In this document: positions 21,534 to 61,200 of the stretch, one piece after another | How the letters are laid out: the number at the start of each line of letters is the position of its first letter | How positions within the stretch are numbered: position 1 is the stretch's first letter | From: an uncultured Alphaproteobacteria bacterium | Lineage (GTDB): Bacteria; Pseudomonadota; Alphaproteobacteria; JAPOUT01; G958296285 | Reading direction: 5' to 3' | NCBI GenBank assembly: GCA_958296285.1 | Contig: OY282459.1 | Location: 1,282,762-1,346,761, forward strand | DNA: 64,000 nucleotides | Notes under the pieces: model-generated | Database searches by the model: none | Seen by the model: the letters and a program-made list of their open reading frames with translations, nothing else | Told to the model about the DNA's origin: nothing | Translations under genes and position numbers: made by a program

Positions 21534-23072
21534 CTAGAGAGGGATATTGTCGTGCTTTTTCTTCGGGTTTGTCATCTGTTTCGCTTTCAGCATCGCCAAG
21601 CCGCGAATGACGCGGCGGCGCGTCTCTTTCGGGGCGATGATGTCGTCAATATAGCCCCGCTCCGCCGCGACAAAAGGGTTTAAGAATCGCGCCTCATAAG
21701 CCTCGGCGCGTTTGGCGATTTTGTCGGGATTGCCGATCTCGTCTCTGTGGAGAATCTCCGCCGCGCCCTTCGCCCCCATGACGGCGATCTCGGCGCTCGG
21801 CCAGGCATAGTTCAGATCGCCCCTGATATGTTTGGACGCCATGACGTCATAGGCTCCGCCATAGGCTTTGCGCGTGATGAAGGTGATTTTCGGCGCTGTC
21901 GCCTCGGCATAGGCGAAGAGGAGCTTCGCGCCGTGCTTGATGATGCCGCCTTCCTCCTGAGCCTGCCCGGGCAGAAAGCCCGGCACATCCACGAGGGTGA
22001 GAATCGGAATGTCAAAACAATCGCAGAAGCGGACGAACCGCGCGGCTTTGCGACTGGCGTCCGAATCCAAAACGCCGGCGAGAATGAGAGGCTGATTCGC
22101 CACAATGCCGACAGTCGCGCCGTCCATCCGCGCGAAGCCAATGACGATGTTTTTAGCGAAATCCCGCTGAATCTCAAAAAAATCCTCCTCATCCACAAGA
22201 GCGAGAATCGCGCGCTTGATGTCATAGGGCGTGTTCGGATTGGCGGGGACGAGTTTCTCCAGAGCCGGCGCGTCTCTATTCGGATCGTCATGGCTTTCGC
22301 GGCGGGGCGGCTTCTCGCGGTTGGAGGCGGGGAGGAAATCAAGAAGGCGGCGGATCTCTTGAAGCGCTTCGGCGTCATTGTCGTAAGCGCCGTCAGCGAC
22401 GCCGGATTTCTTCATATGGACGCTCGCGCCTCCGAGCTGTTCGGCGGATATGTCCTCATTCATCACGGTCTTGACGACATTGGGGCCGGTCACGAACATC
22501 GTGGACGTCCCGCGCGCCATGAAAATAAAATCCGTCATGGCGGGGGAATAGACATCGCCGCCGGCGCAGGGGCCCATAATGACCGAAATCTGCGGAATCA
22601 CTCCGGACGCCAAAACGTTCCGCAAGAAGACCTCGCCATAACCGCCAAGCGCCTCCACGCCCTCCTGAATGCGCGCGCCGCCGGCGTCAAAAAGCCCGAC
22701 AATCGGCGCGCCGACCCGAAGCGCCATGTCCTGAACTTTCGTGATCTTCGCCGCGTGAGTCCGCGAGAGCGATCCGCCAAAGACCGTGAAATCCTTGGCG
22801 AAAAGATAGACGGGTCTGCCATTGACCGTTCCCCATCCGGTGATGACGCCGTCCCCTGGGATCGCCGTCCCTTCCATGTCAAACTCATGGCTTTGATGCT
22901 CCACGAACATGTCAAACTCCTCAAAACTTCCGTCATCCAAGAGGAGCGCGACTCTTTCGCGCGCCGAGAGTTTGCCCTTCGCGCGCTGCGCCTTGAGACG
23001 CTTCTCGCCGCCGCCTGCCAGCGCCGCCGCGCGGCGCTTTTTCAATTCATCCCGAATCGCCTTATCTTTCAT
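21534..23072 (-). CDS. pccB: propionyl-CoA carboxylase beta subunit (carboxyltransferase)
   Basis: N-terminus MKDKAIRDELKKRRAAALAGGGEKRLKAQRAKGKLSARERV...FEEFDMFVEH is typical of PccB/MmdA. Start at internal Met (23072). Confidence 0.9.
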   Translation of the reverse strand: MKDKAIRDELKKRRAAALAGGGEKRLKAQRAKGKLSARERVALLLDDGSFEEFDMFVEHQSHEFDMEGTAIPGDGVITGWGTVNGRPVYLFAKDFTVFGGSLSRTHAAKITKVQDMALRVGAPIVGLFDAGGARIQEGVEALGGYGEVFLRNVLASGVIPQISVIMGPCAGGDVYSPAMTDFIFMARGTSTMFVTGPNVVKTVMNEDISAEQLGGASVHMKKSGVADGAYDNDAEALQEIRRLLDFLPASNREKPPRRESHDDPNRDAPALEKLVPANPNTPYDIKRAILALVDEEDFFEIQRDFAKNIVIGFARMDGATVGIVANQPLILAGVLDSDASRKAARFVRFCDCFDIPILTLVDVPGFLPGQAQEEGGIIKHGAKLLFAYAEATAPKITFITRKAYGGAYDVMASKHIRGDLNYAWPSAEIAVMGAKGAAEILHRDEIGNPDKIAKRAEAYEARFLNPFVAAERGYIDDIIAPKETRRRVIRGLAMLKAKQMTNPKKKHDNIPL

Positions 23073-24042
23073 CGCTTCGCCCTCGCTTGAATAAAGCGGC
23101 GCTGTTTTCCCACAAAGCGCCTTTGAGGTCAAAATCCAAAATCCGCCAGCTCTCTTCCATATGGGGCGGCAGAGGCGCGCGGGCGGTCAGAATCTTGCCC
23201 GAAGGCAGACGCAAAGACATCTCCCGCGCATGAAGATGAAGTCCGCGACCCAATCCTTTCGCGGCGCTCTCTTTTCCATATTTTTTGTCGCCGACAATCG
23301 GCGTTCCGATCTCTGAGAGATGGATGCGAAGCTGATGCTTTCGTCCCGTATGGGTCATCAGGGCGAGCCATGCGAAGCGCTGTCCGGCTTTCCGCGCTAA
23401 AACGTAGTCCGTCCGCGCGCGCTTTTCGTCTCCGCCTTCTTTTTCGGACGCGATCGGCGAGACAAGACGCCCGCGCGTCTCTTTGGGCGCGGAGATCGTC
23501 AAAGCCCAGTAAATTTTCCGAACCTCCCGCTTTCTAAAACGTTCGGCGAGATGCGCCGCCGCCGCCGCCCTCCGCGCGAGAATGAGAACGCCGCTCGCCT
23601 CCTTATCCAACCTATGGACGAGTTTCGGACGCTCCGCCGCGTCAAAGCGGAGGGCGTCCAGCAATCCGTCCAGATGGCGCGAGACGCGACTCCCTCCCTG
23701 CGCCGCCAATCCGGCAGGCTTGTTGATGACGATGACGTCGTGATCGCGGTGAAGAATCCGCGCCCTCAGATCGGCGCTCTCTCGGCGCGAGGGCGGCGGC
23801 AGCAGAGCGGATCGCCGCGCCGCGCCCTCCTTGAGACGTTTGGGCAGACGAAGACGCTCGCCCTTTCTCAAGCGCTGTCCGGCGCGCGCCTTCGCGTCTT
23901 CCACCCGTATCGCGCCCCGCCGCAGAAGATTCTCCAAACGCGAATGCGGCACGCTCGGCAGATGCCTCTTGAACCAGCGATCCAGCCTGATGCCGTCATC
24001 CTCGGCGGCGATTGTTTTTTCCAAGAGAGGGCTGTCGGTCAT
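23062..24042 (-). CDS. RluA-family 23S rRNA pseudouridine synthase (RluC/RluD-like) with S4 domain
   Basis: S4-like LDRWFKRHLPSVPHSRLENLLRRGAIRVE and catalytic motif HRLDKEASGVLILAR. Start set at MTDSPL. Confidence 0.85.
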   Translation of the reverse strand: MTDSPLLEKTIAAEDDGIRLDRWFKRHLPSVPHSRLENLLRRGAIRVEDAKARAGQRLRKGERLRLPKRLKEGAARRSALLPPPSRRESADLRARILHRDHDVIVINKPAGLAAQGGSRVSRHLDGLLDALRFDAAERPKLVHRLDKEASGVLILARRAAAAAHLAERFRKREVRKIYWALTISAPKETRGRLVSPIASEKEGGDEKRARTDYVLARKAGQRFAWLALMTHTGRKHQLRIHLSEIGTPIVGDKKYGKESAAKGLGRGLHLHAREMSLRLPSGKILTARAPLPPHMEESWRILDFDLKGALWENSAALFKRGRSDER

Positions 24043-25337
24043 TCTGTCTTTCTTTTCTGCCGCAATTTGTCCCACCATGCGAGTCTCTTCTTGATTTCGC
24101 GCTCAAAGCCCAGATCGGTCGGCGCGTAGATTTTCTGCCGCGCGATTGTGTCGGGAAAATAATTCTGCCCGGCGAATCTGTCAGGCTGATCGTGATCGTA
24201 GCGGTAGTTTTCGCCATAGCCCAGAGTTTTCATCAGACGGGTCGGGGCGTTGAGCGCGTGTTTCGGCGGCGGGAGCGATCCGGATTCCTTCGCCAGCGCC
24301 TTCGCCTCTTTGGACGCCCGATAGACCGCGTTGGATTTCGGCGCGGACGCCAAATAAAGAACCGCCTGCGCCAGAGCGAGCTCGCCCTCCGGCGAGCCAA
24401 GCGCTTCATAGGCGCGGCGCGCGGCTTCGGCTTGATGGAGAGATTCGGGATCGGCGAGACCGATATCCTCCACCGCCATGCGTATCAGCCGCCGCGCGAT
24501 GTAAAGAGGATCTTCGCCGCCGGCGAGCATTCTCTCCAGCCAATAGAGCGCGGCATCGGCATCGCTCCCGCGCACCGATTTATGCAGAACGCTGATCAAA
24601 TTATAATGCTCCTCGCCCGCTCTGTCGTAAAGAGGGGCGCGTTTCTGCAAGACATCGCCCAAAGTTTCGGGGGTCAGAGGCGGCGCGTCTTTGTTTTTTT
24701 CGCTTCGCGCGAAAATCTCTTCCGCCATATTGAGAAGGAAGCGTCCGTCTCCGTCCGCCATGCCGATGAGCGCGCGGCGCGTCTCTTCGTCAAGCGGCAG
24801 GGTTTCGCCTGTGATCTCTTCGGCGCGTTTGAGAATCTCTTCCAGCGCTTCCGAATCCAGCCTGTTCAAGACAAAAACGCGGCAGCGCGAGAGCAGCGCC
24901 GCCCCAAGCGTGAAAGAGGGATTCTCTGTCGTCGCCCCCGCCAAGACAATCTCGCCGGTCTCCGCCCAAGGAAGGAAACTGTCCTGCTGCGTCCGCGTCA
25001 GGCGATGGATTTCGTCAATGAAGAGAAGGGTTTCTATGCCGTTTTGTCTTCTGGCGAGGGCTTCGTCATGGATTTTTCGGAACTCGGCGAGTCCGGCGGA
25101 TGTCGCCGAAGCCTGCGCGAAAACATAGCCCGACAGCGAAGAGAGAATGCGGACGATTGTCGTCTTGCCCGATCCCGGAGGCCCCCACAAAATGAAGGAG
25201 ACGAGTTTCTCTCGCGCCGCCATTCGCGCGATCGGCGCGTCCTCATTCAGGAGATGCGGCTGTCCGAAAATCTCGGAGAGGTTCCGCGGACGCAGCCGCT
25301 CGGCGAGCGGCGAAGCGCGCCTTGCATCCCGCTTCAT
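24039..25337 (-). CDS. rarA: replication-associated recombination protein A (AAA+ ATPase RarA/MgsA)
   Basis: Walker A LWGPPGSGKTT and overall MgsA architecture, 432 aa. Confidence 0.9.
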   Translation of the reverse strand: MKRDARRASPLAERLRPRNLSEIFGQPHLLNEDAPIARMAAREKLVSFILWGPPGSGKTTIVRILSSLSGYVFAQASATSAGLAEFRKIHDEALARRQNGIETLLFIDEIHRLTRTQQDSFLPWAETGEIVLAGATTENPSFTLGAALLSRCRVFVLNRLDSEALEEILKRAEEITGETLPLDEETRRALIGMADGDGRFLLNMAEEIFARSEKNKDAPPLTPETLGDVLQKRAPLYDRAGEEHYNLISVLHKSVRGSDADAALYWLERMLAGGEDPLYIARRLIRMAVEDIGLADPESLHQAEAARRAYEALGSPEGELALAQAVLYLASAPKSNAVYRASKEAKALAKESGSLPPPKHALNAPTRLMKTLGYGENYRYDHDQPDRFAGQNYFPDTIARQKIYAPTDLGFEREIKKRLAWWDKLRQKRKTE

Positions 25338-31032: not shown

Positions 31033-31623
31033 TCAGTCTTTCCCCTTCTCTTTTTTCTGCTGTTTCGGCGGCGGCGCTTTCGGCGCTTTCGCGGGCTGGA
31101 CGGCTTTGGCGGCTTTCGGCGATGGCGTCTTGGACGCGAGCGTCTTCGGCGCGCGCGTCTTTGGCGCGATAAGATGAACTTTTCCGCCCGCCGCTTCCAC
31201 CTTCTCCAGCGCTTTTTTGGAAGCGCCCGCCGCCTCAATCTTGACGGCGGCGGAGATTTCTCCCTTCGCCAAGAGCCTTATGCGCTCGCGCGGATGACGC
31301 GCCAGTCCCGCCTCTTTCAGATGCTCCGCCGTCAGTTTTTTAGAAATGTCCAGCCTTTTGGCGTCTATCGCGTCCTGAAGGCGTCCCAGATTGACAACCC
31401 GCCACAATTTGCGAAAGCGCTTATTGCCAAAACCTCTTTTCGGCAGGCGCATATGGAGAGGCGTCTGCCCGCCCTCAAACGCGCCGACCGCCGACCCCGC
31501 CCGCGACTTAAATCCCTTATGCCCGCGCCCCGATGTCTTGCCGCGACCGGATCCGATCCCGCGCCCTATGCGCCGCCGCGATTGTTTCGCGCCTTTGGGA
31601 TCGCGCAATTGGTTGAGTTTCAC
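31033..31623 (-). CDS. rplO: 50S ribosomal protein L15 with ~40-aa K/A/P-rich C-terminal extension
   Basis: [37 protein letters not shown]; tail APKTLASKTPSPKAAKAVQPAKAPKAPPPKQQKKEKGKD. Confidence 0.93.
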   Translation of the reverse strand: MKLNQLRDPKGAKQSRRRIGRGIGSGRGKTSGRGHKGFKSRAGSAVGAFEGGQTPLHMRLPKRGFGNKRFRKLWRVVNLGRLQDAIDAKRLDISKKLTAEHLKEAGLARHPRERIRLLAKGEISAAVKIEAAGASKKALEKVEAAGGKVHLIAPKTRAPKTLASKTPSPKAAKAVQPAKAPKAPPPKQQKKEKGKD

Positions 31624-31922
31624 TTGGCGTCCCCTTCCACGATTCTGACCATATGAGCGACTTTGCGAATCTGTCCGCGCATTTCGGGGCAGTCGGCGAC
31701 CGCGCGGCGCTTTCCGATTCTGCCCAAGCCCAGCGCGCGGAGCGTTCTGCGCTGCGTTTGAGGACGCCGTATCGCGCTGGCATATTGCTCCACGACAAGA
31801 TGCGTCTTTTTTTCAGGCGGCTTTGTCTTGCTCGCGGGTTTTTTCACGGGCTTTTTCGCGGCGGGCTTTTTCACGACCGCTTTTTTCTTCGCGGCGGGCG
31901 TTTTTTTCTTCTCGGCGCTCAT
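31620..31922 (-). CDS. rpmD: 50S ribosomal protein L30 with ~38-aa K/A/P-rich N-terminal extension
   Basis: L30 core [34 protein letters not shown], preceded by [39 protein letters not shown]. Confidence 0.88.
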
Positions 31923-32674
31923 TTCTTCGCCTCTTTTGTCTTTTTCGCGGCTTTAGCCTTCGCATCCTTTTTGGCGGAGGCTGTCGCTTTTTTCACGGAT
32001 TTTTCCCTGCCCTTCTTCTCCGCCCCTTTTTTGGCGTCCTTCTTCTTGGCGTCTTTCTTTTTGGCGGAGGCGGGCGCGGCTTTCTTCCCCTGCGTCTTAG
32101 AGGCTTGCGTCTTAGAGGCGGGCGTCTCAGACTCAGGCGTCTGCTTTCCGCGCTTCATCCGAGGGCGTCCGACCAAAACATCGCTGACCTTCATGCCTCG
32201 CCGCGCCGCGACCATGCGCGGACTCGCCTGCTTCTTCAGAGCGTCAAAGACGGCGCGCACCATATTGTTCGGATTGGAACTCCCCAAAGATTTGGCGACA
32301 ATGTCCTGCGCGCCAAGAGCGTCAAAGACGGCGCGCATCGGTCCGCCGGCGATGATGCCGGTGCCGGGAGGCGCGGCGCGCAGAAGCGCCCGACCCGCCC
32401 CCGACGACCCCAAAACGTCATGATGAAGCGTCCGACCTTCGCGCAGAGGCACGCGGATCATGGAGCGCTTGGCGACTTCGGTCGCTTTGCGAATCGCTTC
32501 CGGCACTTCCCGCGCCTTGCCTCGTCCGAAGCCGACCTTCCCCCTCTGATCGCCGGCGACCACGAGCGCCGCGAAGCCGAAGCGCCGTCCGCCTTTGACA
32601 ACCTTCGCCACGCGATTGATATGAACGAGGCGATCTACGATCTCGCCTTCCGCCGCTTCCGTTCTCTTGCTCAT
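31919..32674 (-). CDS. rpsE: 30S ribosomal protein S5 with ~75-aa K/A-rich C-terminal extension
   Basis: Core [30 protein letters not shown]. Tail contains [17 protein letters not shown] repeats. Start at MSKRTEA. Confidence 0.92.
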
Positions 32675-32690
32675 GCCGATGCCCAGCCCC

Positions 32691-33050
32691 CTAGAATTGC
32701 AGTCCGCCTTCGCGCGCCGCTTCCGCGAGCGCCCTGACGCGACCATGATACAAACAGCCGCCGCGGTCAAAGACAACCTTCTCCACGCCGATTTTCTTCG
32801 CGCGCTGGGCGAGTCTGACGCCCGTTTGTCGGGCGGCTTCGGTCGGCGCGGCTTTCGCGCCGCCCCGCGCCTCCTTGTCCAGCGAGGAGGCCGCGGCGAG
32901 CGTATGCCCTTTCTCGTCGTCTATGATCTGCGCGTGAATATGCCGTATTGACCGAAAGACCGAAAGTCTGGGTCTGCCTCTCGCGGCTTTGCGCAATTTG
33001 ATCCGCGTCCGCCGCGCGCGGCGCTCTGACGGAGACAGGACAGTCCTCAT
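32691..33050 (-). CDS. rplR: 50S ribosomal protein L18
   Basis: [24 protein letters not shown]. Confidence 0.95.
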
Positions 33051-33580
33051 TTCTTCTTCCCCTCCTTGCGGATGATATATTCGCCGGCATAAGCGACTCC
33101 CTTGCCCTTATAGGGTTCGGGCTTGCGCCATGCTCGGATTTCGGCTGCCGTCTGCCCGACCTTCTGCTTGTCAATGCCGCTGACGAGAACCGCGCCGGCG
33201 CGAGGCACCGCCAACTCCACCCCGTCAGGCGCTTTATAAACGACATCATGGCTGAAGCCCAAAGCGAGTTTGAGATCCTTCCCCTGCATCTGCGCCCGAA
33301 AACCCACCCCCGAAATGACAAGCTCGCGCGAAAATCCCTCGCTGACCCCCTTGACCATATTCGCGATGCGCGATCGGTTCGTCCCCCAAAGGGCGCGGGT
33401 TTGACGATGATCGTCTTTCGGGATGACGTGGAGGGCGCGATCCTTCTCTTCCAGACGGAGAGACGCGCCGATCGTCATGGAGAGCGCGCCTTTCGGGCCT
33501 TGGATGGCGATCTGTCCGTCTCCGATCTCGGCTTTGACGCCTTCGGGAAGCGCGATCGGCTGTTTTCCTGTCCTAGACAT
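33047..33580 (-). CDS. rplF: 50S ribosomal protein L6
   Basis: [15 protein letters not shown], 177 aa. Confidence 0.95.
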
Positions 33581-33600
33581 GACGCTGGCTCCTGTCTCCG

Positions 33601-33999
33601 CTAGAAGACGCGGCAGAGAATCTCGCCGCCGACATTATTCTTCCGCGCCGCGCCGTCCGACATCACTCCCTTCGGCGTGGAAAGAATGGAGATGCCGAGA
33701 TTGGCGTGAAAAACCGGAATGTCTCGGACGGAAGAATAGACTCGGCGTCCGGGCTTGGAGATTCGCTCTATCCGCCTGATGACCGGCGCGCCTTCATGAT
33801 ATTTGAGCTCTATGTGAATCTCGGCTTTTCCGCCGTCAAAATCGGCGCGGCTGTAGCCCTCAATATAGCCCTCCTTGACGAGGACGTCCAGCACGCGGGC
33901 GCGGAGCGCGGACGCCGGCGTCTTGACGAAAGACAGTCCGCGCATTTGCGCGTTGCGGATGCGGGTGAGCATGTCGCCCAAAGGATCGGTCATTGTCAT
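33601..33999 (-). CDS. rpsH: 30S ribosomal protein S8
   Basis: [17 protein letters not shown]. Confidence 0.95.
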
Positions 34000-34011
34000 C
34001 GCGGCGTCCCC

Positions 34012-34317
34012 CTACCAGCTCGCTTTGATCATGCCCGGAATGAAGCCCTGAGACGCCAAAGCGCGGAGCTCTATTCGCGACATATCCACTTTGCGATAAT
34101 ATCCGCGCGGGCGTCCTGTCAGAGCGCATCGGTTGCGGATGCGGGTCGGCGAGGAATTGCGCGGCATTTTCGCCAAAACCAAAGACGCCTGAAAGCGCGC
34201 CGTCCCCGGCGTGGATCGGTCGTGAATGATTCTCTTCAGACGCGCGCGCTTCTCGGCATAGCGATCCGTCATGCGCTTGCGCTTCTTGTTTCGCTCAATC
34301 GCGCTTTTTTTCGCCAT
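34012..34317 (-). CDS. rpsN: 30S ribosomal protein S14
   Basis: [28 protein letters not shown]. Start at the internal Met of the longer ORF-track frame. Confidence 0.93.
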
Positions 34318-34346
34318 AGCGGTGTCCTCCTCTTCTTTCTTCTTTC

Positions 34347-34994
34347 TCAATGCGCCGCGAAGGGAAAGCGGAAGGCTTCCAACAGAGCCTGCGCTTCCTC
34401 GTCTTTCTTGGCGCTCGTGCAGACCGAGATGTCCATGCCCCAAATCTGATCGGCTTTGTCATAGTCAATCTCCGGAAAGACGATATGCTCGCCAATGCCG
34501 AAGGAATAATTGCCGTGTCCGTCAAAACTTTTGGGGCTGAGCCCCCGAAAGTCGCGGGCGCGAGGGAGCGCGATCGTGATCAGACGATCTATGAACTCAT
34601 ACATGCGATCGCGGCGCATCGTGACTTTCGCGCCGATCGGCTGTCCGGCGCGGAGTTTGAAACCCGCCTCCGACCGCCGCGCCCGCGTAATGACGGCGCG
34701 CTGTCCGGCGATCAGCGTCAGATCGTTCTGCGCGGCTTCCACTTTCTTGCGATCCTGCGTCCCCTGTCCAACGCCGATATTGACGACGACCTTCTCCAAT
34801 TTCGGCGCGGCGAGAGGATTGCCTCCGCCAAAGCGCTTCGCCAAATCCGGACGGATCGTCTGATAATAGGCGATTTTTAGACGCGGCGGCGTTCTCTTTT
34901 CCGCCCCGTCCGCCGCGCCCGCTTTGTCCGCCTTTTTGGGCTTGGCGGTCTTGACGGTCTTGACCGCCTTTTTGACTGTCTTCTTGTCAGCCAT
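34347..34994 (-). CDS. rplE: 50S ribosomal protein L5 with ~35-aa K/A-rich N-terminal extension
   Basis: Extension [34 protein letters not shown] precedes L5 core [19 protein letters not shown]. Confidence 0.92.
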
Positions 34995-37977: not shown

Positions 37978-38820
37978 CTATCGCGCCCGCCGTCTATGAC
38001 GGCTTCGGATGATCAAACGGTTGGAGCGTTTTTTGGATCGCGTGCGGTGTCCTTTGGTCGGTCTGCCCCACGGCGTGACGGGATGGCGTCCGCCTGACGA
38101 TCGCCCTTCGCCGCCGCCATGCGGGTGATCCACAGGGTTTTTGGCGACCCCCCGCACGATCGGACGGCGTCCGAGCCAGCGATTCCGTCCGGCTTTGGCA
38201 AGACGTCTGTTCACGTGATCCGGGTTGGAGACGGTTCCCACAGTCGCCATGCAGGCGGACGGCACAAGACGCTGCTCGCCGGAAGATAAGCGCAAAATCG
38301 CGTAATCATTCTCATAGCCCTGAAGCTGCGCCGAAGAGCCGGCGGCGCGGGCGATCTGTCCGCCTTTGCCGGGCTTCATCTCCACATTATGCACCTGCGC
38401 GCCGACAGGCATGTCGGCGAGTTTCATCGCGTTTCCGATCTTCATGCCGACATCCGATCCCGACAGCACGACATCCCCTGTCTTCAAGCCCTGCGGCGCG
38501 AGAATATAGGCGAGTTCGTCATCCTCATAGCGTATCAGCGCGATGAAGGCGCTGCGGTTGGGATCATATTCCAAGCGCTCCACAGTGGCGGAAATGCCTG
38601 TCTTGGCGCGGCGGAAATCCACGCGGCGATAGCGTCTTTTATGCCCGCCGCCCTTGCGCCGCGCCGTCAGACGCCCATGATTGTTGCGCCCCCCGCTCTT
38701 GGAAGCCCCCGCCGTCAGACGCTTCTCAGGACCCGATTTCCAAAGCCCCGAGCGCGCGACCAAGACCAATCCGCGCCGAGCCGGGCTTGTCGGCTTATGC
38801 CGTTTGAGCGCCATCGTCAA
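37978..38820 (-). CDS. rplB: 50S ribosomal protein L2
   Basis: 280 aa, motif [22 protein letters not shown]. Confidence 0.96.
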
Positions 38821-39149
38821 GCCCTCGCCCCGCCGGAGAGATCAATGCTGCTCCCCTCTTTGAGACGCACCATCGCCTTTTTGACCATCTTGCGCTGTCC
38901 TTCGCGTCCCTGAAAGCGCTTCACCTTGCCCTTCCGCCTTAACGTATTGACCGACACGACCTCCACTTTAAAGATTTCCTGCACGGCTTTTTTGATCTGC
39001 GGCTTGGTAGCGCGAACATCCGTCTCAAAGACGATCTGATTCGCCTCGCTCAGACGGGTCGCCTTCTCGCTGATGACAGGCTTCCTGATCAGATCGTGAA
39101 GATCGCGGCGGCGGGGCGTCTTGACGCGGGGCGTCTTGACGCGGGTCAT
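38817..39149 (-). CDS. rplW: 50S ribosomal protein L23 (N-terminal RVKTP tandem duplication)
   Basis: Core [15 protein letters not shown]-terminus [15 protein letters not shown] is encoded by a 15-nt tandem duplication. Confidence 0.92.
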
Positions 39150-39793
39150 GGCGCAGCCTTCCGAGAACTGTCGGCGAAGCGCGAGGGCAGCGCCTTCAGA
39201 GCCTCTTGCGTCAGGGCGAGCGTCTCATGGGCGAGAATGTCATAGACATTGAGCGCCGCCAAAGGCACGAAAGAGAAGCCCGGAATGTTCCTTGAGGCGA
39301 GGGAGAAATTCTTGTCCATCTCCGCCGACCCCTCCACGAGAAGCGCCTTGGCGATGCCGATCGTCTCCATTTGGGGTCGGAGCGCGGCGGTTTTGTGGGT
39401 CTTCGCGGACGCCTTCTCCACAATGACGATCGCGCCGGATTTCGCCTTCGCCGAGAGCGCGTGCTTGAGCGCGAGACGTCTGAATTTCTTCGGCAGATCA
39501 TGACCGTGATCGCGGACGAGAGGCCCATGCGCCTTGCCGCCGCCGCGAAAGATATTGACGCGCCGCGAGCCATGACGCGCGCCGCCCGTCCCCTTCTGCC
39601 GATAAATCTTGCGCGTGGAGCCTCGGATTTCGCCGCGCCTCTTCGTCTTGCGCGATCCCGTCCGCCGCCGCGCCAGATGGTAGCGCGTCATTCTGTGGAG
39701 AATATCGGCGCGAGGCGTCAGACCGAACAGAGCCTCGTCCAGCTCCGCCTCGCCGACCTTTTTGTTCTCCAGCGTCAGAACGGGGAGTTTCAT
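39146..39793 (-). CDS. rplD: 50S ribosomal protein L4
   Basis: [18 protein letters not shown], 215 aa. Confidence 0.95.
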
Positions 39794-40569
39794 TTTTTCT
39801 CTCCCTGCTCTTTCGGCTCTTCGGACTCTTGCGTCTCTTGAGGCTCTTGAGCTTGTTGAGGCTCTTGAGTCTCTTGAGCCGCCTCTTTCTCCTGCTTCAT
39901 GCCCACGAGACCGGCCGGCATCGGCGCCTCCTTCGGCAGAGGTTTTTTAACCGCATCGCGGAGAAAAACCCATCCGCCCTTGGAACCCGGCACCGCGCCC
40001 TTGACGACAACCCAGCCCTTCTCTTCATTGATGTCGCAGATTTCCAGATTTTGGACAGTCACGCGCGCCGCGCCCATATGTCCCGCCATCTTCTTGCCCT
40101 TAAAAACGCGCCCCGGATCTTGGCACTGCCCTGTAGAGCCTTGACTTCGGTGATTGACCGAAACGCCGTGGCTCGCGCGCAAGCCTGCGAAATTATGGCG
40201 CTTCATCACGCCGGCGAAGCCCTTGCCGATGCTCTGTCCGACGGCATCCACATGCTGCCCGACGACAAAATGCGCCGCCGAAAACTCCGCGCCTTCTTCC
40301 AGCATCGCCTCTTGATCCACGCGGAACTCGGCGACAATGCGAGGCGGCGTCATGCTCTTCGCCTCATAGACGCTGCGCTGCGGCTTGGCGACATTCTTGG
40401 GTTTGCGCCGCCCCGCGCCTAGAACGACAGCGCTGTAGCCGTCTTTTTCCGGCGCGCGCGCGCCGACAACGCGGCAGGAATCCATCTTTAAGACCGTCAC
40501 CGGAATCTGCGCCCCGTCCCGATAAATTTGACTCATGCCGAGTTTCTTGACTATCACGCCCGATCGCAT
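39790..40569 (-). CDS. rplC: 50S ribosomal protein L3 with acidic Q/E/P-repeat C-terminal tail
   Basis: [16 protein letters not shown] core. Tail [31 protein letters not shown] is encoded by tandem repeats. Confidence 0.94.
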
Positions 40570-40578
40570 CTTGAACTC

Positions 40579-40893
40579 CTACAGTTTGATTTCCACATCC
40601 ACGCCGGCGGCGAGGTCTATTTTCATCAGAGCGTCCACGGTTTGCGGGGTCGGATCCACAATGTCTATCAGGCGCTTATGGGTGCGTATTTCAAATTGCT
40701 CGCGGCTTTTCTTGTCAATATGAGGGGAGCGCAGCACCGTGAAGCGCTCAAAGCGAGTCGGCAGCGGAATCGGACCCAGCACGCGCGAGCCTGTCCGCTC
40801 GGCGGTATGGACAATCTCCTTCACCGAAATGTCCAGCACCCGATGATCAAAGGCTTTCAAGCGAATGCGTATGTTCTGCTGCCGCGCCTGCAT
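40579..40893 (-). CDS. rpsJ: 30S ribosomal protein S10
   Basis: [21 protein letters not shown]. Start at the internal Met. Confidence 0.95.
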
Positions 40894-40904
40894 AACTCCG
40901 CCCC

Positions 40905-43004
<2,100 letters not shown>

Positions 43005-44095: not shown

Positions 44096-44845
44096 TCATA
44101 CCCAGCCGCGAGACATGCAGGCCGGGCAGTGGCATGAATCTGTTGGAATCTTGTAATGGACCAAGCCGTGCATCACACCCTTATTTTTATCAAAGCGTCC
44201 GGCAATGTGATCAAAATAGCGAGCGTCCTTTTGCTCATAGCGCCTCCAAACCGCCCAAGCCAAGAGATCCGCAATTTGAATCAGGCGCGAAGCGGCGGAA
44301 TCGACAAATAAAGGGACTTCGGCAAGATTATGAAGTTTGCCCCATTGTGTGCCTTGCTGACGAAACCGCTGCGCGAGTCCTTGCAGAGTATTCTCATAAT
44401 GGGATTTATCCATGACGATCAGCCCACGATGAATATCCTGATTTTTTGACGCTGACCGAAAGAGGAACATGTTGAAGCGGTTGCAGATTTCTTCAAAGGC
44501 GTATTCAACAGAGTCGCCAGTCGTTCGCGCTCCCTTATCCACGATGACAGCAAAAGCCTTCACGCTCCAATGCGCGCTGTTAAGCAAATTCAACCCTTGC
44601 TCAATAGTATCAAGACGCTTCTGCCGCGCCATGCCTTTCCATGGCGCTCTCTTTCCTGTCGCCATCAAACTGGCATGAAGCTCAACATCGCCAGGGGCGC
44701 CAATCCCTAGAGACTCAACGAAATTGTCTGCTTCAGAAATGAGGTGATAGATTTGCCGCTCAAAAACCGCAACTCCGGCAAGAACAAAATGGCGCTCATT
44801 CGGGTTCCTAACGGAACCAGAACCGTCCAAATAAAGCAAATACAT
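44096..44845 (-). CDS. DUF3800-family protein, low-GC gene inserted between rpoC and the rpsL leader
   Basis: N-terminal MYLLYLDGSGS (YxDxSG-type motif), C-terminal RLIQIADLLAWAV (QxADL motif), ~250 aa. GC is ~48-50% versus >60% flanks. No ortholog expected at this conserved junction. Confidence 0.6.
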   Translation of the reverse strand: MYLLYLDGSGSVRNPNERHFVLAGVAVFERQIYHLISEADNFVESLGIGAPGDVELHASLMATGKRAPWKGMARQKRLDTIEQGLNLLNSAHWSVKAFAVIVDKGARTTGDSVEYAFEEICNRFNMFLFRSASKNQDIHRGLIVMDKSHYENTLQGLAQRFRQQGTQWGKLHNLAEVPLFVDSAASRLIQIADLLAWAVWRRYEQKDARYFDHIAGRFDKNKGVMHGLVHYKIPTDSCHCPACMSRGWV

Positions 44846-44996
44846 GAAAGACAGCCTCCAAAAAGGCAAATGCAGCCAGGTGGAGCATTAACTCGCTCCA
44901 GCAGACCGTGACAGCCACAGCCTTCCCGACCACAAAAGGAAATTTGGCGCGGCTAACGCCGAAAGTCAAGAACAAAAGCCGAAAGCAACGACAACA

Positions 44997-55421: not shown

Positions 55422-56180
55422 TCAGCCCTTCTCCACTTGATTGTATCCGAGCTCCACCGGCGTGGATCTGCCGAAAATGGAGACCGAAACTTTTAACCGC
55501 GAGCGCTCCACATCCACATCCTCCACAACGCCGTTGAAGGAGGCGAACGGCCCGTCCGAAACGCGAACCTGCTCGCCGATGGAGAAAATGACCGAAGGGC
55601 GGGGTCTGTCCACGCCCTGCCGCATCTGCCCCAAGATTCTATCCACCTCGCCCTGCGACAGAGGCTGCGGGGAATCGGCGTCCCCCAAAAAGCCCGTCAC
55701 GCGAGGCAGATTGCGTATGAAATGCTGCGTCTCTCCGTTCATCTCCATTTTTAGAAGCAGATAGCCAGGGAACAATTTGCGCTTGACCTCTTTATTTTGC
55801 CCGCGCCGCATCTCCAGCACTTCCTCCACAGGCACGAGCATTTCGTCAAAATACTCCGCCAAGCCTTGAGGAACCATGCGCTCCTTTATGGTGTCGCAGA
55901 CGCGCTGCTCAAAATTGGATTGCGTATGCACGATATACCACGCCTTCTTCTCGTCTTGATCTTCGCCGTCAGGCTTGTTGCCCGCAGGTTCGCCCGAGGG
56001 CTCGCCGCCGGCAGGCTTGCCGCCGGCAGGTTCGCCCGAGAGCTCGCCAGAGGGTTCGCCGCCGGCAGGTTCGCCGCCAGCAGGCTCGCCCGAGGGCTCG
56101 CCGCCGGCAGGCTCGCCCGAGAGCTCGCCGCCTGCGGCTTCGCTCGGCAGTTCTTTCTCAACCTTATCGCTGTCGGTCAT
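55422..56180 (-). CDS. nusG: transcription termination/antitermination factor NusG with ~80-aa acidic ([10 protein letters not shown])n N-terminal repeat extension
   Basis: NGN core [17 protein letters not shown] and KOW motif. Start at MTDSDK; the ORF-track upstream Gly/Phe-rich extension is rejected. Confidence 0.9.
55975..56160. repeat. in-frame 15-nt tandem repeat array inside the nusG 5' region, encoding ([10 protein letters not shown])n
   Basis: Direct repeats ggttcgcccgagggctcgccgccggcaggc... visible in the sequence. Confidence 0.8.
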
Positions 56181-56194
56181 GCTCTCTCTTCCCT

Positions 56195-56482: not shown

Positions 56483-56517
56483 TTCAATCGGACAATCCCA
56501 AGCGCGTTGGGCAGGGG

Positions 56518-56591
56518 CAGGAGTGGAGGGACTCGAACCCCCAACCCCCGGTTTTGGAGACCGGCGCTCTAACCAGTTGAGCTACACTCCT
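56518..56591 (-). tRNA. tRNA-Trp (anticodon CCA); 3' CCA not encoded
   Basis: Reverse complement AGGAGTGTAGCTCAACTGGTTAGAGCGCCGGTCTCCAAAACCGG...CACTCCTG. Typical tuf-tRNA-Trp-secE-nusG context. Confidence 0.85.
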
Positions 56592-57782
56592 TCAGGCAAG
56601 CACCTTGGATACCACGCCCGCGCCGATCGTCTTGCCGCCTTCGCGGATGGCGAAGCGGAGCTTCTCGTTCATCGCGATGGGCGCGATGAGTTCCACTTCC
56701 ATTTGGGCGTTGTCGCCGGGCATGATCATCTCCGTGCCTTTCGGGAGGGTGATCGTGCCTGTGACGTCGGTCGTGCGGAAGTAGAACTGCGGACGATAAT
56801 TGCTGAAGAACGGCTTATGCCGTCCGCCCTCCTCCTTATTGAGGATATAGGCTTCGGCTTTGAACTTGGTGTGCGGCGTGACTGTCCCCGGCGCCGAGAG
56901 AACTTGTCCGCGCTCCACGGCTTCGCGCTCCACGCCCCGCAGCAGCACGCCGACATTGTCTCCCGCCTCGCCCTGATCCAGAAGTTTGCGGAACATTTCC
57001 ACGCCTGTGCAGGTCGTCTTGCTCGTATCTTTAAGCCCGACAATCTCAATTTCCTCGCCGACCTTGACCACGCCCTGCTCAATGCGCCCCGTCACGACCG
57101 TCCCGCGCCCCGATATGGAGAAGACGTCTTCTATCGGCATCAGGAAGGGCTGATTTTTCGGGCGATCAGGCTGAGGAATCGTGGAATCCACGGCTTCCAT
57201 CAATTTGAAGATGGAGTCTTTGGCGTTTTCGCCATCCTTGCCTTCCAGCGCTTGGAGCGCCGAGCCTTTGATGATCGGGATGTCGTCCCCCGGGAACTCG
57301 TAATTGGAGAGAAGCTCGCGCACTTCCACTTCCACCAGTTCCAGCAATTCGGGATCGTCCACCTGATCCACTTTGTTCAGATAGACGACAAGGGCAGGCA
57401 CGCCGACCTGTCGCGCGAGGAGGATATGCTCGCGCGTCTGCGGCATCGGCCCGTCGGCGGCGGAGACCACGAGAATCCCGCCATCCATTTGCGCCGCGCC
57501 TGTGATCATGTTTTTGACATAGTCGGCATGTCCCGGGCAATCCACATGGGCATAGTGGCGTTTTTCGGTTTCGTACTCCACATGGGCGGTGGAGATGGTG
57601 ATTCCGCGCTCTTTTTCTTCCGGCGCGTTGTCTATCTCCTCATAGGCGGAGAATTCCGCGCCGCCTTTCTCAGACAGCACTTTGGTGATCGCGGCGGTGA
57701 GGGTTGTTTTGCCGTGATCCACATGGCCTATCGTTCCGATGTTGCAGTGCGGTTTATTGCGCTGGAATTTTTCTTTCGCCAT
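56592..57782 (-). CDS. tuf: elongation factor Tu
   Basis: [32 protein letters not shown], 396 aa. Confidence 0.98.
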
Positions 57783-57834
57783 GATGTCTCCTCGTGGTTG
57801 GCGTTTGACGTGGTTCCTTCACGGAGCGGGTGAA

Positions 57835-57905
57835 GGGAATCGAACCCTCGTCTTCAGCTTGGAAGGCTGCGGCTCTACCATTGAGCTACACCCGCCGTGT
57901 GAAAG
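57835..57905 (-). tRNA. tRNA-Gly (anticodon UCC)
   Basis: Reverse complement GCGGGTGTAGCTCAATGGTAGAGCCGCAGCCTTCCAAGCTG...TTCGATTCCCTTCACCCGCT. Confidence 0.8.
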
Positions 57906-57970
57906 CGCGCTTCCTCCTTGTTTTCCGCGTTTCTTCGCGCCATGGCTTGGGCGTCCTGTGTGGTGGAGGG

Positions 57971-58055
57971 GGTTGGATTCGAACCAACGTAGGCATAGCC
58001 AACGGGTTTACAGCCCGTCCCCTTTAACCGCTCGGGCACCCCTCCTTTCACGCGA
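57971..58055 (-). tRNA. tRNA-Tyr (anticodon GUA), long variable arm, CCA encoded
   Basis: Reverse complement GGAGGGGTGCCCGAGCGGTTAAAGGGGACGGGCTGTAAACCCG...GGTTCGAATCCAACCCCCTCCACCA. Confidence 0.85.
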
Positions 58056-58253: not shown

Positions 58254-61200
58254 TCAAAATGCTCCTGCAACGCCAAAACGAATGAAACGATCCGAAGAGC
58301 CTCTGATATGCCCCGCTTCCCTATGCCAGCCCGCCGAAATCTTCATAGAAACCCCATCCGACAACGGCTTGACATAAAGCGCCTCCAAGTGAATCGCCCG
58401 CCCGGAAGGTTTTAAAGACCCCTCTGCCCTCTGATCAATGAGAGACCCGTCTCGGCGGCGGGAAACGGCGTAATCCAAGGCGAAGCCGCCCTTCTCCACC
58501 CGCAAAGGCTGACGCGCGCGCAGGGCGATCCAATCTTCCTGCGAGAAAACGCCGCGCTTGCCCAAGCCCGCCGTGAAAGCGCTCATCACGATCGGGCCTT
58601 TTAACGACAAAAGCGAAACGCCGTCAATCTTCGGCGACATGAAGCCCGCCTCGGCGCTGATAAAGAGATGCCAGCCGCGCGCGAGCGCCTTCTCATGCGA
58701 GACGCCAAAAAACCAATTTTCTCGCGCGCCGTCCGCATGGAACGCGCCATCGCTCCAGCCCCCCAAAAGCCGATCTTCCTCGCGCAAAAGTCCGGCATGA
58801 AGATTCCAGCCCTCCCAAGCGAAATGCGCCAGCAAAGCGTATGAGGCTTTTTCTTCGCGGCTCGCGTCCCGCGCGTGATCCTGCCAGAGAGGCTTGCCTG
58901 AAAAAAGACCAAGATTCATAGAATAATCGCCGCCCTCCCAAGACAGCCCCGCGCCCACGCCATCGGCGATCAAAGAAAAATGCGCCGGAGACCTCTCGCG
59001 CCAAAGAGGCGACCGCGTCTCCGCCGCCATCAGAGCGGCGGGATGCTGAATGCCGAAAACCCGCGCCCCCAAAAGACGATAAGGCTCAACGCGGCGCTTC
59101 GCGCCGAGCGGTCTCAGAAAATCCCCCATCGCGTCAGGCGCGGCAAGGCTGAAATAACGACCAAGAGACGAATAAAAGGGCGCGCTCAACGCGTCAAACC
59201 GCGCGATGATCCTGCCCCGCAAAGCGCGGGCGAGACTGTCGCCGAGAGCCGGCGGCGCGACAAAGAAACTCTCCGCCGACAAAAAGGACGCTCTTGAGCC
59301 GCCCGCCCCCGCCGCCCCGCTCATGGAAGTCGCGCCGACAGGACGAGTCGCGGCGTCTATGTCTAAAAGCCCATGCCCGTAAATGTCGCTGTCGGCATAG
59401 ATGCCGGAACTGTCCGCCGTCTGCAGCAGACGCCATGCCAATTCCGGCGCGCCCATCGTGTCGCCGAAGGCTTCCATCAGGATCGCCAAAGCGCCCGCCA
59501 CATGCGGCGCGGCGAAAGAGGTGCCTTGCACAAGAACATCCGCGCGATCCGTGCCTTTCGCCGACACGCCTTCTCCGAAAGCGGCGAGACACCACTCCTT
59601 CGCATGACCGCATTTGTGATAGTTCGGAATAAGAGCCCCTGCCGTGTAGCGGGTTCTCGCTTCATTCAGAACCCTCCGCAGGGCGACAACGGCGAGGATC
59701 AGAGGCCTGTTCCTGTCCGCGCCGAGAAGATCGGGGAAATAGAAGGGCGTGTCGGAGAAGAGTCGGGGATGATCTTCATCCCAGCCGGGCCCTATAATCA
59801 TCCCTTCAGGGTTTCGAATATCCTCTGCGATATTCCCTGCGGAATAGACATAGACCGTCCTGTCCTCTTCGGGCGTATCATTTTGGCGGAAGACCTCATA
59901 ATAGTTGATGCTCGGGTTATTGATTCTTGCCTTTATCCTCGCTATCTCGCTTTCGGTGGCGGTCTCATAGTCGGCGATCACAATTTGCGTGATACCGTCA
60001 AAGAAGAGGATAGACTGGCTGACATTGACGATCTTCACATGATTTTGGAAATAGGCGAGACCGCTGGTGCTGGCCGTTGTTCCTGAATGGAGGAGAATCT
60101 TGGCGTTGAAAGCGATTCCATGAAAATCGGTGAGGCTGCCGCCGGCATCCCCCCTCTTCGCCGCGACAACGCCGCTCACGTGATTCCCATGCAGCAAAGT
60201 GATGCCGCTGTTCATGCCCACCAAGATTTCGCAATCTGTCGCGCTCGCGACCGTGCCGGCGGCAGGGCAATTCCTCACGCGGATCAGATCGGTATAAAGA
60301 CCATCGCTCGCCTGCGCATCGGTCAGAAGCGTCCGCCCTGCAGGAAGGCGGAATTGTTGGGCTGTGATCGTCGTTTCCATGGTGACGGGATCGGTGTTCG
60401 TTTCGCCTATCGCGCAATTGGTCGTTGTCGGCGTGGTGACGTCGGCGGGATTGAGCGCCGCGCCGGTGCAATTGTCCGCCGGCAGATAATATCTGTCCAC
60501 GCCCAACACTCCCCTGTCATGGGCGACGGTGAGCCTGCCGGCATAAGCGTTCACGAGAGAGGCGTCCCAGAGATGTCCCTCCAGCACGCCGACCGTCTGC
60601 CCCGCGCCGGTGAAGCCTCGCGCATAGGCTTCGGCGGCGCCGGACGCCTCAAAGCCGGGCTGCGTGCGATATTCCTGCGTCCTCCAAAAAACCGCCGAGC
60701 GAGAGAGCGTAGGCACGGTGATGCTCCAAACCTTCTGCGTGGCGTGTTTTGTCAGCGTGAAGCCGCCTAGAGTCGTGAGATCGCCCACGGTGAAGGTTCC
60801 CGTCCCGGTGAAAAGATTGATGACCGTCCCTGAGGCGGTGCTGGAGGGAAGGCTTACGCGGAGATTCCCCTTCAACGTCACATTCGCCGCGCCGAAATCA
60901 AGAAGCGCGGTCGCGCCTGACGGAAGGACGCGAATCTGAAAGGTCAGTTCGCCGCCGTCATTTTGCAAAAAAGTCTCCAAACCCTGAATCGCGAGCCTGC
61001 TGCCCATGATCCGAAGGTTCAGATCGCCGCTGTTGGTGAAACTGTCGCCCGTGCCGCCGCCGAAATTGGCATTGGCGGTCAGAGTCATGCGGGCGTCCGC
61101 CATATTGGTGACCGTGTCGCTGCCCGCGCCGAGGTCAAAGCCGCCGATGAAAGCGCCGTGATTGTTAAAAACATCCGCCGCGCCGCTCGCCGTGATGCTG

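Follow-up and report, generated by a model that had tools for sequence, protein, structure and literature searches.

Why do four ribosomal proteins of one bacterium, encoded close to each other, all begin or end in a long stretch rich in lysine, alanine and proline (K/A/P)? The question is raised by a 64-kb stretch of DNA (contig OY282459.1; in the following the window) from an alphaproteobacterium that branches deeply and has a genome of about 1.72 Mb with 60% GC, in which the S10, spc and alpha ribosomal-protein operons occupy 26.8-40.6 kb on the minus strand in their usual order, according to the map of open reading frames (ORFs). Within these operons, L15 and S5 have C-terminal tails of this kind, and L30 and L5 have N-terminal ones. 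The four extensions are translated, have been made by in-frame duplication with copy-number changes that still go on, and recur at the same termini with a labile composition. It is fairly probable that they are genuine, presumably disordered low-complexity appendages that slippage has generated at tolerant termini, and that in this species they likely act as non-specific polycations on ribosomal RNA (rRNA).

The four extended genes and their tails

The spc genes follow the order L24-L5-S14-S8-L6-L18-S5-L30-L15-SecY, which was called likewise in the loci L081, L082-L084 and L166-L168 that are compared below. The gene rplO (uL15, 196 aa) lies at 31033..31623 on the minus strand, and its GTG start overlaps the stop codon of rpmD (uL30, 100 aa; 31620..31922, minus strand), the ATG of which overlaps the stop codon of rpsE in an ATGA. 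The rpsE gene (uS5, 251 aa) extends over 31919..32674 on the same strand, with its ATG at 32674, and rplE (uL5, 215 aa), also on the minus strand, over 34347..34994, with an ATG that overlaps rplX (L24) by 8 nt, an arrangement seen in most alphaproteobacterial loci examined. An AAGAGG that resembles a Shine-Dalgarno (SD) sequence precedes the L30 ATG by 7 nt and lies inside the S5 tail.

All four proteins are members of the families uL15, uL30, uS5 and uL5, as their Pfam domains score well above the gathering scores, with PF00828 at residues 76-149 of L15, PF00327 at residues 43-92 of L30, PF00333 and PF03719 at residues 14-76 and 89-159 of S5, and PF00281 and PF00673 at residues 59-115 and 119-212 of L5. 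Free of Pfam domains are residues ~151-196 of L15, 1-41 of L30, ~171-251 of S5 and 1-35 of L5. In a sequence search of the PDB, uL15 chains align to residues 1-~152 of the query, uL5 chains from residue ~33-46, and solved bacterial uL30 chains, which have 55-63 aa, from residue ~39-47, and no solved uS5 aligned past residue ~182. For both uL15 and uL30, the best match came from the alphaproteobacterial entry 28ye. Lying beyond the Pfam and PDB-aligned cores, the tails are biased terminal segments outside the conserved fold, which is what defines a low-complexity region of a ribosomal protein.

The tails are coding in the annotated frame, as the GC content at third codon positions (GC3; 0.72 in the 203 tail codons versus 0.73 in the remaining 4,411 operon codons) and the preferences among Ala and Thr codons match those of the cores. 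Read in the other frames, the S5 and L30 tails are interrupted by stops. In the strain L081, which is 99.37% identical, an independent gene caller arrived at the same lengths for L5, S5, L30 and L15 (215, 251, 100 and 196 aa), with an S5 that differs in one residue (R223K), and an identical S5 was called in locus L165. The changes that the tails have gained between strains are synonymous ones and conservative amino-acid replacements (V>A, R>K, Q>K), and no frameshift is among them. The lengths that an initial annotation of the DNA had given (196, 100, 251 and 215 aa) are correct, the ORF map, the Pfam cores and the calls in the second strain being in agreement, and the two strings quoted there, [16 protein letters not shown] in S5 and [20 protein letters not shown] in L30, are found in the proteins. 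That the tails are contiguous with the cores in a single frame, as had been stated as well, is borne out by Pfam cores that run into the tails, by the like codon bias and by the coupled starts. For annotation this means that the long L15, L30, S5 and L5 proteins of this lineage are not gene-calling errors.

The tail of L15 is K/A/P-rich, comprises residues 151-196 (31036..31173, minus strand) with a net charge of +11 and belongs to no Pfam family, and the likewise K/A/P-rich extension of L30 comprises residues 1-41 (31800..31922, minus strand; net +14). The tail of S5 at residues 171-251 (31922..32164, minus strand; net +23), for which neither PDB nor Pfam gave a match, and the extension of L5 at residues 1-35 (34890..34994, minus strand; net +8) are K/A-rich. 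When the whole window was scanned in all six frames for 25-aa segments with at least 7 K and at least 15 K+A+P, exactly four segments were returned, which are the tails of L15, L30, S5 and L5, and nothing else. The 203 pooled tail residues consist of 33% K, 20% A, 10% P, 13% S+T and 2% R and have a net charge of +56, and lysine exceeds arginine by about 13:1 (67 K versus 5 R), the operons overall having 8% K and 10% R. K+A+P make up 57-71% of the tails versus 24% operon-wide. With the 8% K of the operons as expectation, the lysine counts have binomial probabilities from 2e-4 (L15) to 1e-11 (S5, about that value for 28 lysines in 81 residues), with P~4e-8 for the 16 lysines among the 41 residues of the L30 extension. 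On the DNA level, the coding strand of the tails has 37% A and 67% purines versus 21% and 54% in the cores.

The term 'histone-H1-like' that had been used for the tails fits their composition, which is rich in Lys, Ala and Pro and poor in Arg as in the tail of H1, and it does not fit in the sense of homology: the isolated tails match no Pfam family at E<=10, the S5 tail alone matches no PDB chain at E<=10, and neither the winged-helix Linker_histone domain nor any other sequence relation to linker histone H1 was detected in Pfam and PDB at this threshold. It is thus a resemblance and not a membership. No RNA family was detected in the tails or close to them by an Rfam scan. In an AlphaFold2 model of S5 from a 17-sequence alignment the tail has a predicted local distance difference test (pLDDT) score of 31-41, but the whole model is poor (mean pLDDT 47), and the low confidence in the tail is weak evidence for the predicted disorder.

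Tandem repeats, strains and relatives

Each of the four tails contains in-frame arrays detected by Tandem Repeats Finder (TRF), the periods of which are 9, 12 or 15 nt. The arrays hold 2-3.4 copies of these 9-15-nt units, and the units differ from tail to tail. In the L15 tail, a 15-nt repeat encodes APKT[R/L] units (31125..31169, minus strand; period 15 x 3.0), the L30 extension has a 12-nt repeat (31835-31875), the S5 tail has 15-nt repeats at 32031-32066 (KKKDA) and 32091-32131 (ASKTQ), and the L5 extension has 9-nt repeats at 34941-34964 and 34900-34922. A third strain (L165/L166; ENA ERZ19489113, contig s55.ptg000057c, 1,723,605 bp) is 99.14% identical to the window over 20.7 kb and differs from it there by two indels only. 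One indel, at about 31131-31134, adds precisely one 15-nt unit (APKTL) to the L15 tail, and as the third strain has this extra unit, repeat slippage is directly shown and still active. The length polymorphism between strains for which the initial annotation had proposed to look does therefore exist, with an L15 of 196 aa in the window and of 201 aa in the third strain. In the L30 extension, the strains differ by two or three substitutions that are confined to the tail. The other indel of the third strain lies apart from the tails and is a 6-nt in-frame insertion (CCCCCC) in codons 93-94 of an RluC-like pseudouridine synthase gene (23062-24078, minus strand; insertion at ~23799-23800).

Also in the relatives L082 and L084, every TRF array of the operons that scores at least 40 falls in a tail, and the repeat units differ between the lineages and from those of the window. 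That the tails arise by repeat expansion, as had been proposed from the sequence, is thus supported by in-frame repeats in every tail, independent units in relatives, and the extra 15-nt unit in L15 of one strain. The tails are also rich in homopolymers: they make up 1% of the window and contain 7 of its 61 A/T runs of at least 6 nt, which is an about 12-fold enrichment. Runs of A6-A7 in the coding strand are found in the tails at 31800-32164 and 31036-31173, and the L30 extension alone has four. As successive AAA codons for lysine are known to favour slippage, the A6-A7 runs could come at a cost for translational or transcriptional fidelity.

With Hyphomicrobiales and Parvibaculum sequences, RpoB of the host shares no more than 69% identity, and in scans of genome contigs with S5 and of metagenomes with L15 nothing closely related to the host turned up, L15 reaching about 60% identity at best. 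By protein database searches and contig look-ups, the relatives L082, L083, L084, L167 and L168 were found, the first three of which were picked because their S5 is long, and the last two solely for the identity of their SecY (83% and 81%). When 13 core proteins were concatenated (about 1,900 columns) for a neighbour-joining tree, the five grouped with the window, making a clade of six genomes at 98% bootstrap support, and L082 came out as sister of the window at 100%. In the order window, L082, L083, L084, L167, L168, the C-terminal tail has 81, 111, 76, 87, 32 and 38 aa in S5 and 46, 54, 60, 42, 34 and 26 aa in L15; the N-terminal extension of L5 has 35, 95 and 68 aa in the window, L082 and L084 and is absent in L083, L167 and L168, and that of L30 has 41, 18, about 5, about 8, about 12 and about 15 aa, the values for L167 and L168 being estimates from the sequence. 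Low-complexity tails at the C-termini of S5, L15 and L3 are present in all six members and vary in length and charge. Judged from this distribution, the S5, L15 and L3 tails are old in the clade and the large L30 extension is recent, which agrees with the lineage specificity that the initial annotation had claimed: the S5 and L15 tails are common to the clade, and within the clade the 41-aa L30 extension occurs only in this species.

The net charge of the S5 tail is +23 in the window, +22 in L082, +11 in L083, +19 in L084, +8 in L167 and -6 in L168. Its residues are correspondingly K-rich in the window and in L082-L084, mixed K/R-rich in L167, and Q/E/T-rich with an acidic character in L168. 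The tail of L15 is weakly acidic in two members, L083 (net -2) and L168 (net -3), and has a positive net charge in the other four. In L167, which has 67% GC, the basic tails are shorter, and Arg prevails over Lys in the L15 tail. The tail of L3 is acidic in all six. A clade-wide conservation of the charge sign, which would have indicated selection, had seemed true in the first four genomes and was rejected for S5 and L15 on account of the acidic L168 tails. As L168 is acidic at both termini, positive charge is not a conserved requirement there, and since the addition of L167 and L168 it is the low-complexity appendage at these termini that is conserved and not the sign of its charge; only L3 stays acidic throughout. 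No support was found for the idea that a shift of the stop and the start had moved part of a longer ancestral S5 tail into L30 as its extension. Together, S5 tail and L30 extension do have a similar length in the window (122 aa) and in L082 (129 aa). However, they are translated from different frames, and the other frames yield Arg/Glu-rich sequence interrupted by stops, which counts against such a capture.

Similar appendages recur outside the clade. In 80 GTDB loci, at most 26 aa of S5 extend beyond the core, and these tails are usually acidic and 8-16 aa long. In the same set, K-rich L15 tails of 30-45 aa are found in Pseudorhodoplanes- and Hyphomicrobium-like metagenome-assembled genomes, and K/A/P-rich L5 N-extensions of 35-50 aa in six Hyphomicrobiales loci. 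A separate clade of low-GC Alphaproteobacteria has both basic L15 tails and L30 N-extensions that are K/A/P-rich and 28-40 aa long. The pair of L30 extension and basic L15 tail is present in the GTDB loci L044, L047, L048, L050 and L053 and in a second group of metagenome loci (L110-L114). An exhaustive search with L30 among 1.84 billion cluster representatives gave N-extensions of at least 25 aa in 59 of the 149 best matches, a ranking that is biased toward extended proteins by the query's own tail, and most of the 16 extended matches that were inspected are K/A/P/T-rich. Distant L15 homologues on JGI metagenome contigs (L115-L162; 36-45% identity), a large group, have strongly acidic A/E/D/T/P-rich C-tails of 50-157 aa with net charges of -4 to -25, and as such tails exist, low-complexity tails, whether positive or negative, can be said to form generally at the C-terminus of uL15. 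The 'long' S5 database entries P0001, P0003 and P0108 are chimeric or internally duplicated S5 and do not bear tails; one of them has a stretch that looks like a sequencing artefact, and all three are probable assembly errors in public data.

What the tails may do

Put together, these data can be read as follows. Units of 9-15 nt are duplicated and deleted in tandem and in frame by replication slippage, by which the tails have been made and are still being remodelled. Termini that tolerate appendages carry them in all six clade members and, independently, in other bacteria, with a composition that is labile between lineages. The K/A/P tails of this species, which would add about +56 charges per ribosome, most likely reside on or above the solvent face of the ribosome, where they may bind rRNA phosphates electrostatically and non-specifically and thereby shield charges and perhaps help in assembly. 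They may be kept by tolerance or by a weak selection on bulk properties, not on sequence, and would be neither a histone-type domain nor a discrete new function. If the tails are tolerated slippage products of this kind, they are a clean natural example of how ribosomal proteins gain extensions, with the same terminal sites gaining tails again and again, a fast turnover of composition and a gain or loss of a repeat unit that is visible between strains, and they would represent bacterial starting material for the expansion of ribosomal proteins as it is known from mitochondrial and eukaryotic ribosomes.

Some points weigh against this reading. The surface location and the rRNA contact are deduced, and the AlphaFold2 model is too poor to rely on. 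With 67 K versus 5 R, although the genome has 60% GC and the cores favour arginine, the tails hint at a selection for lysine itself, and the persistence of long net-positive S5 tails in five of six clade members hints at some selection as well. A purely tolerant model predicts neither the preference of K over R nor the persistence of the S5 tails, which therefore argue for some selection. Moreover, the clade is represented by six genomes only, three of which were chosen for their long S5.

Among the alternatives, a selected polycationic coat of the ribosome comes first, in which the charge is needed, for instance to stabilise the folding of rRNA or assembly or to replace polyamines or Mg2+, in a lineage with a small genome of ~1.7 Mb. 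The +56 net charge per ribosome that comes almost exclusively from lysine would fit, as would the S5 tails with +23, +22, +11, +19 and +8 in five of six members that have no conserved sequence, the conservative nature of the tail substitutions between strains (V>A, R>K, Q>K) and the small genome, for which the contig of 1,723,605 bp stands. It is nevertheless a rather unlikely explanation, as in L168, which was chosen by SecY, the S5 and L15 tails are acidic with -6 and -3, the L15 tail of L083 has a net charge of -2, several clade members lack the L30 and L5 extensions or have only tiny ones, and all six have an acidic L3 tail. Should the positive charge have a function, such tails would be a cheap means of tuning the surface electrostatics of ribosomes in bacteria with small genomes.

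It is doubtful that the K/A/P tails have an extraribosomal role as in H1 or AlgP and tether ribosomal proteins or ribosomes to the nucleoid or to polyphosphate. Their composition recalls the C-terminal domain of H1 and the KPAA domains of AlgP and PhaF, which are associated with DNA and polyphosphate granules (PMC9239181), and Lys-rich low-complexity regions have generally been linked to nucleic-acid binding (PMC6821194). The tails, however, have no homology to the H1, AlgP or Hc families, their repeats are short and heterogeneous and form no long KPAA arrays, relatives have acidic tails at the same termini, and ribosomal proteins are almost wholly bound to ribosomes, so that the nearest polyanion is rRNA. 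About as doubtful is a functional polyelectrolyte 'brush' that is formed by the clade-wide S5, L15 and L3 tails, joined here by those of L30 and L5, with ~+56 charges that are nearly all lysine. If it were true, the brush might serve to hold ribosomes at the nucleoid or at polyphosphate or to make them cluster or hibernate, and it might substitute for polyamines in a reduced 1.7-Mb genome, with repeat slippage as a tuning knob.

Very improbable is a selection at the mRNA level, in which A-rich, weakly structured gene junctions serve translational coupling and the lysine tails are a by-product. The junctions in question are those between the end of S5 and the start of L30, the end of L24 and the start of L5, and the end of L15 and the start of secY. 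All four tails adjoin junctions where stop and start codons overlap, A and purines are more frequent in the coding strand of the tails than in that of the cores (37% and 67% versus 21% and 54%), and the SD-like AAGAGG upstream of the L30 ATG lies inside the S5 tail, but with 105-243 nt the tails are far longer than initiation requires, alphaproteobacterial relatives have the same coupled junctions without tails, and in relatives acidic tails are found at the same junctions. An artefact of annotation or assembly by wrong starts, frameshifts or mis-assembled repeats, for which the proneness of low-complexity repeats to assembly errors and the in-frame TTG and GTG codons near the start of the L30 core could be cited, is already largely refuted and hardly credible, as three independent assemblies concur except for one whole-unit indel, GC3 and codon usage are gene-like, alternative frames of the S5 and L30 tails have stops, coupled starts and SD sites are present, and relatives also have ATG-initiated extensions of like kind.

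Further termini, neighbouring genes and known systems

Low-complexity termini in the window are not confined to the four proteins. The C-terminal tail of uL3 (259 aa; 39790-40569) is acidic and rich in Q, E and P (39793-39897, minus strand; net -6), contains 9/18-nt repeats (39807-39878) and has acidic counterparts of 21-117 aa in all five clade relatives. At the N-terminus of uL23 (38817-39149), a perfect 15-nt tandem duplication (39111-39145, minus strand) encodes RVKTP units, [15 protein letters not shown]; the protein has 110 aa with an Arg-rich N-terminus of 15 aa, and the duplication is not present in L082-L084, where L23 has 97-99 aa. NusG (253 aa; 55422-56183) has an acidic N-extension of ~79 aa (55947-56183, minus strand) with GEPAG repeats of the [10 protein letters not shown] type, for which TRF gives periods of 15, 27, 42 and 54 nt at 55964-56140; the Pfam NusG domain begins at residue 80. 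The L3 tail, the L23 duplication and the NusG extension are the same phenomenon as the four tails and were absent from the initial annotation. Also the L22 tail holds a TRF array.

The neighbourhood of the operons has some peculiarities of its own. A gene of the DUF3800 family (PF12686, 249 aa) and a DUF3800-VI RNA motif that precedes it (RF02915, 44873-44932) are inserted as a pair (44096-44932, minus strand) between rpsL and rpoC, which is an unusual break in the rpoBC-rpsL-rpsG-fusA arrangement. The rpsJ gene directly follows fusA with no tuf in between (40579-43004), as is also the case in L082, L084, L167 and L168, and the sole EF-Tu gene of the window, the canonical N-terminus of which was confirmed, is found at 56592-57782 in a tRNA-Tyr/tRNA-Gly-tuf-tRNA-Trp-secE-nusG cluster (56516-58045). 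At 58254-63992 on the minus strand, an ORF of at least 1,912 aa runs off the end of the window; its N-terminal repeats are rich in Gly, Ser and Pro, a subtilase domain (S8) lies at residues ~1268-1541, and the C-terminal region holds a putative autotransporter barrel, judged by its look.

Regarding known systems, H1-like domains of the KPAA type occur, besides AlgP and PhaF, also in mycobacterial HupB and in chlamydial Hc1 and Hc2. The KPAA domains of AlgP and PhaF bind DNA and associate with polyphosphate granules, and their repeat number is a mutational hot spot that varies between strains (PMC9239181). The tails share with them the K/A/P composition, the predicted disorder, the origin from tandem repeats and a strain-variable repeat number. 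AlgP/PhaF-type domains, however, are long regular arrays of 4 aa (25 perfect KPAA units plus variants in a region of 154 aa) on DNA-binding or granule proteins, whereas the tails are made of heterogeneous 3-5-aa units in 2-3 copies on ribosomal proteins and have no match to a sequence family, and TRF found no long KPAA tetrapeptide array in them. In organelles, uL15m and uL15c have an extension at the same C-terminus, the mitochondrial and chloroplast chains among the PDB matches having 220-322 aa, and the eukaryotic uL30 (RPL7) has a basic N-terminal extension. Unlike the tails, these organellar and eukaryotic extensions are ordered, conserved and structurally integrated, and no homology is claimed; an alignment of a plant mitochondrial uL15m that reached residue 191 of the query was weak and was judged compositional.

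H1-like, Lys-rich extensions of ribosomal proteins have been described in insects, namely in mosquito RpS6 and RpL23a and in Drosophila RpL22 and RpL22-like (PMC11764897, PMC3074143). They are likewise Lys/Ala/Pro-rich low-complexity tails at termini that have evolved independently in different proteins, but they are eukaryotic and reside on eS6, uL23 and eL22, while the carriers here are uL15, uL30, uS5 and uL5, none of them an ortholog of the insect carriers, which makes this an analogy with no evolutionary connection. For bacterial K/A/P-rich tails of ribosomal proteins, nothing specific was found in the literature. Closest are the 822 low-complexity regions that have been recorded in bacterial ribosomal proteins (Ntountoumi et al., NAR 2019; PMC6821194), which are mostly C-terminal and are inferred to lie at the ribosome surface, and 9% of which have at least 30% Lys. 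Like those, the tails described here are biased terminal appendages on conserved ribosomal proteins, and the acidic L3 tail matches the L3 regions of that survey, which are mostly A/E-rich. Unlike there, two of the four tails are N-terminal, and L15, L30, S5 and L5 are not among the frequent carriers that were named (S2, S16, L25, S3, S6, L3, L10, L17, L19, L21 and L31). Low-complexity tails on bacterial ribosomal proteins are therefore already described and recurrent in many lineages, and the locus is not a new system but a clear fresh example of them.

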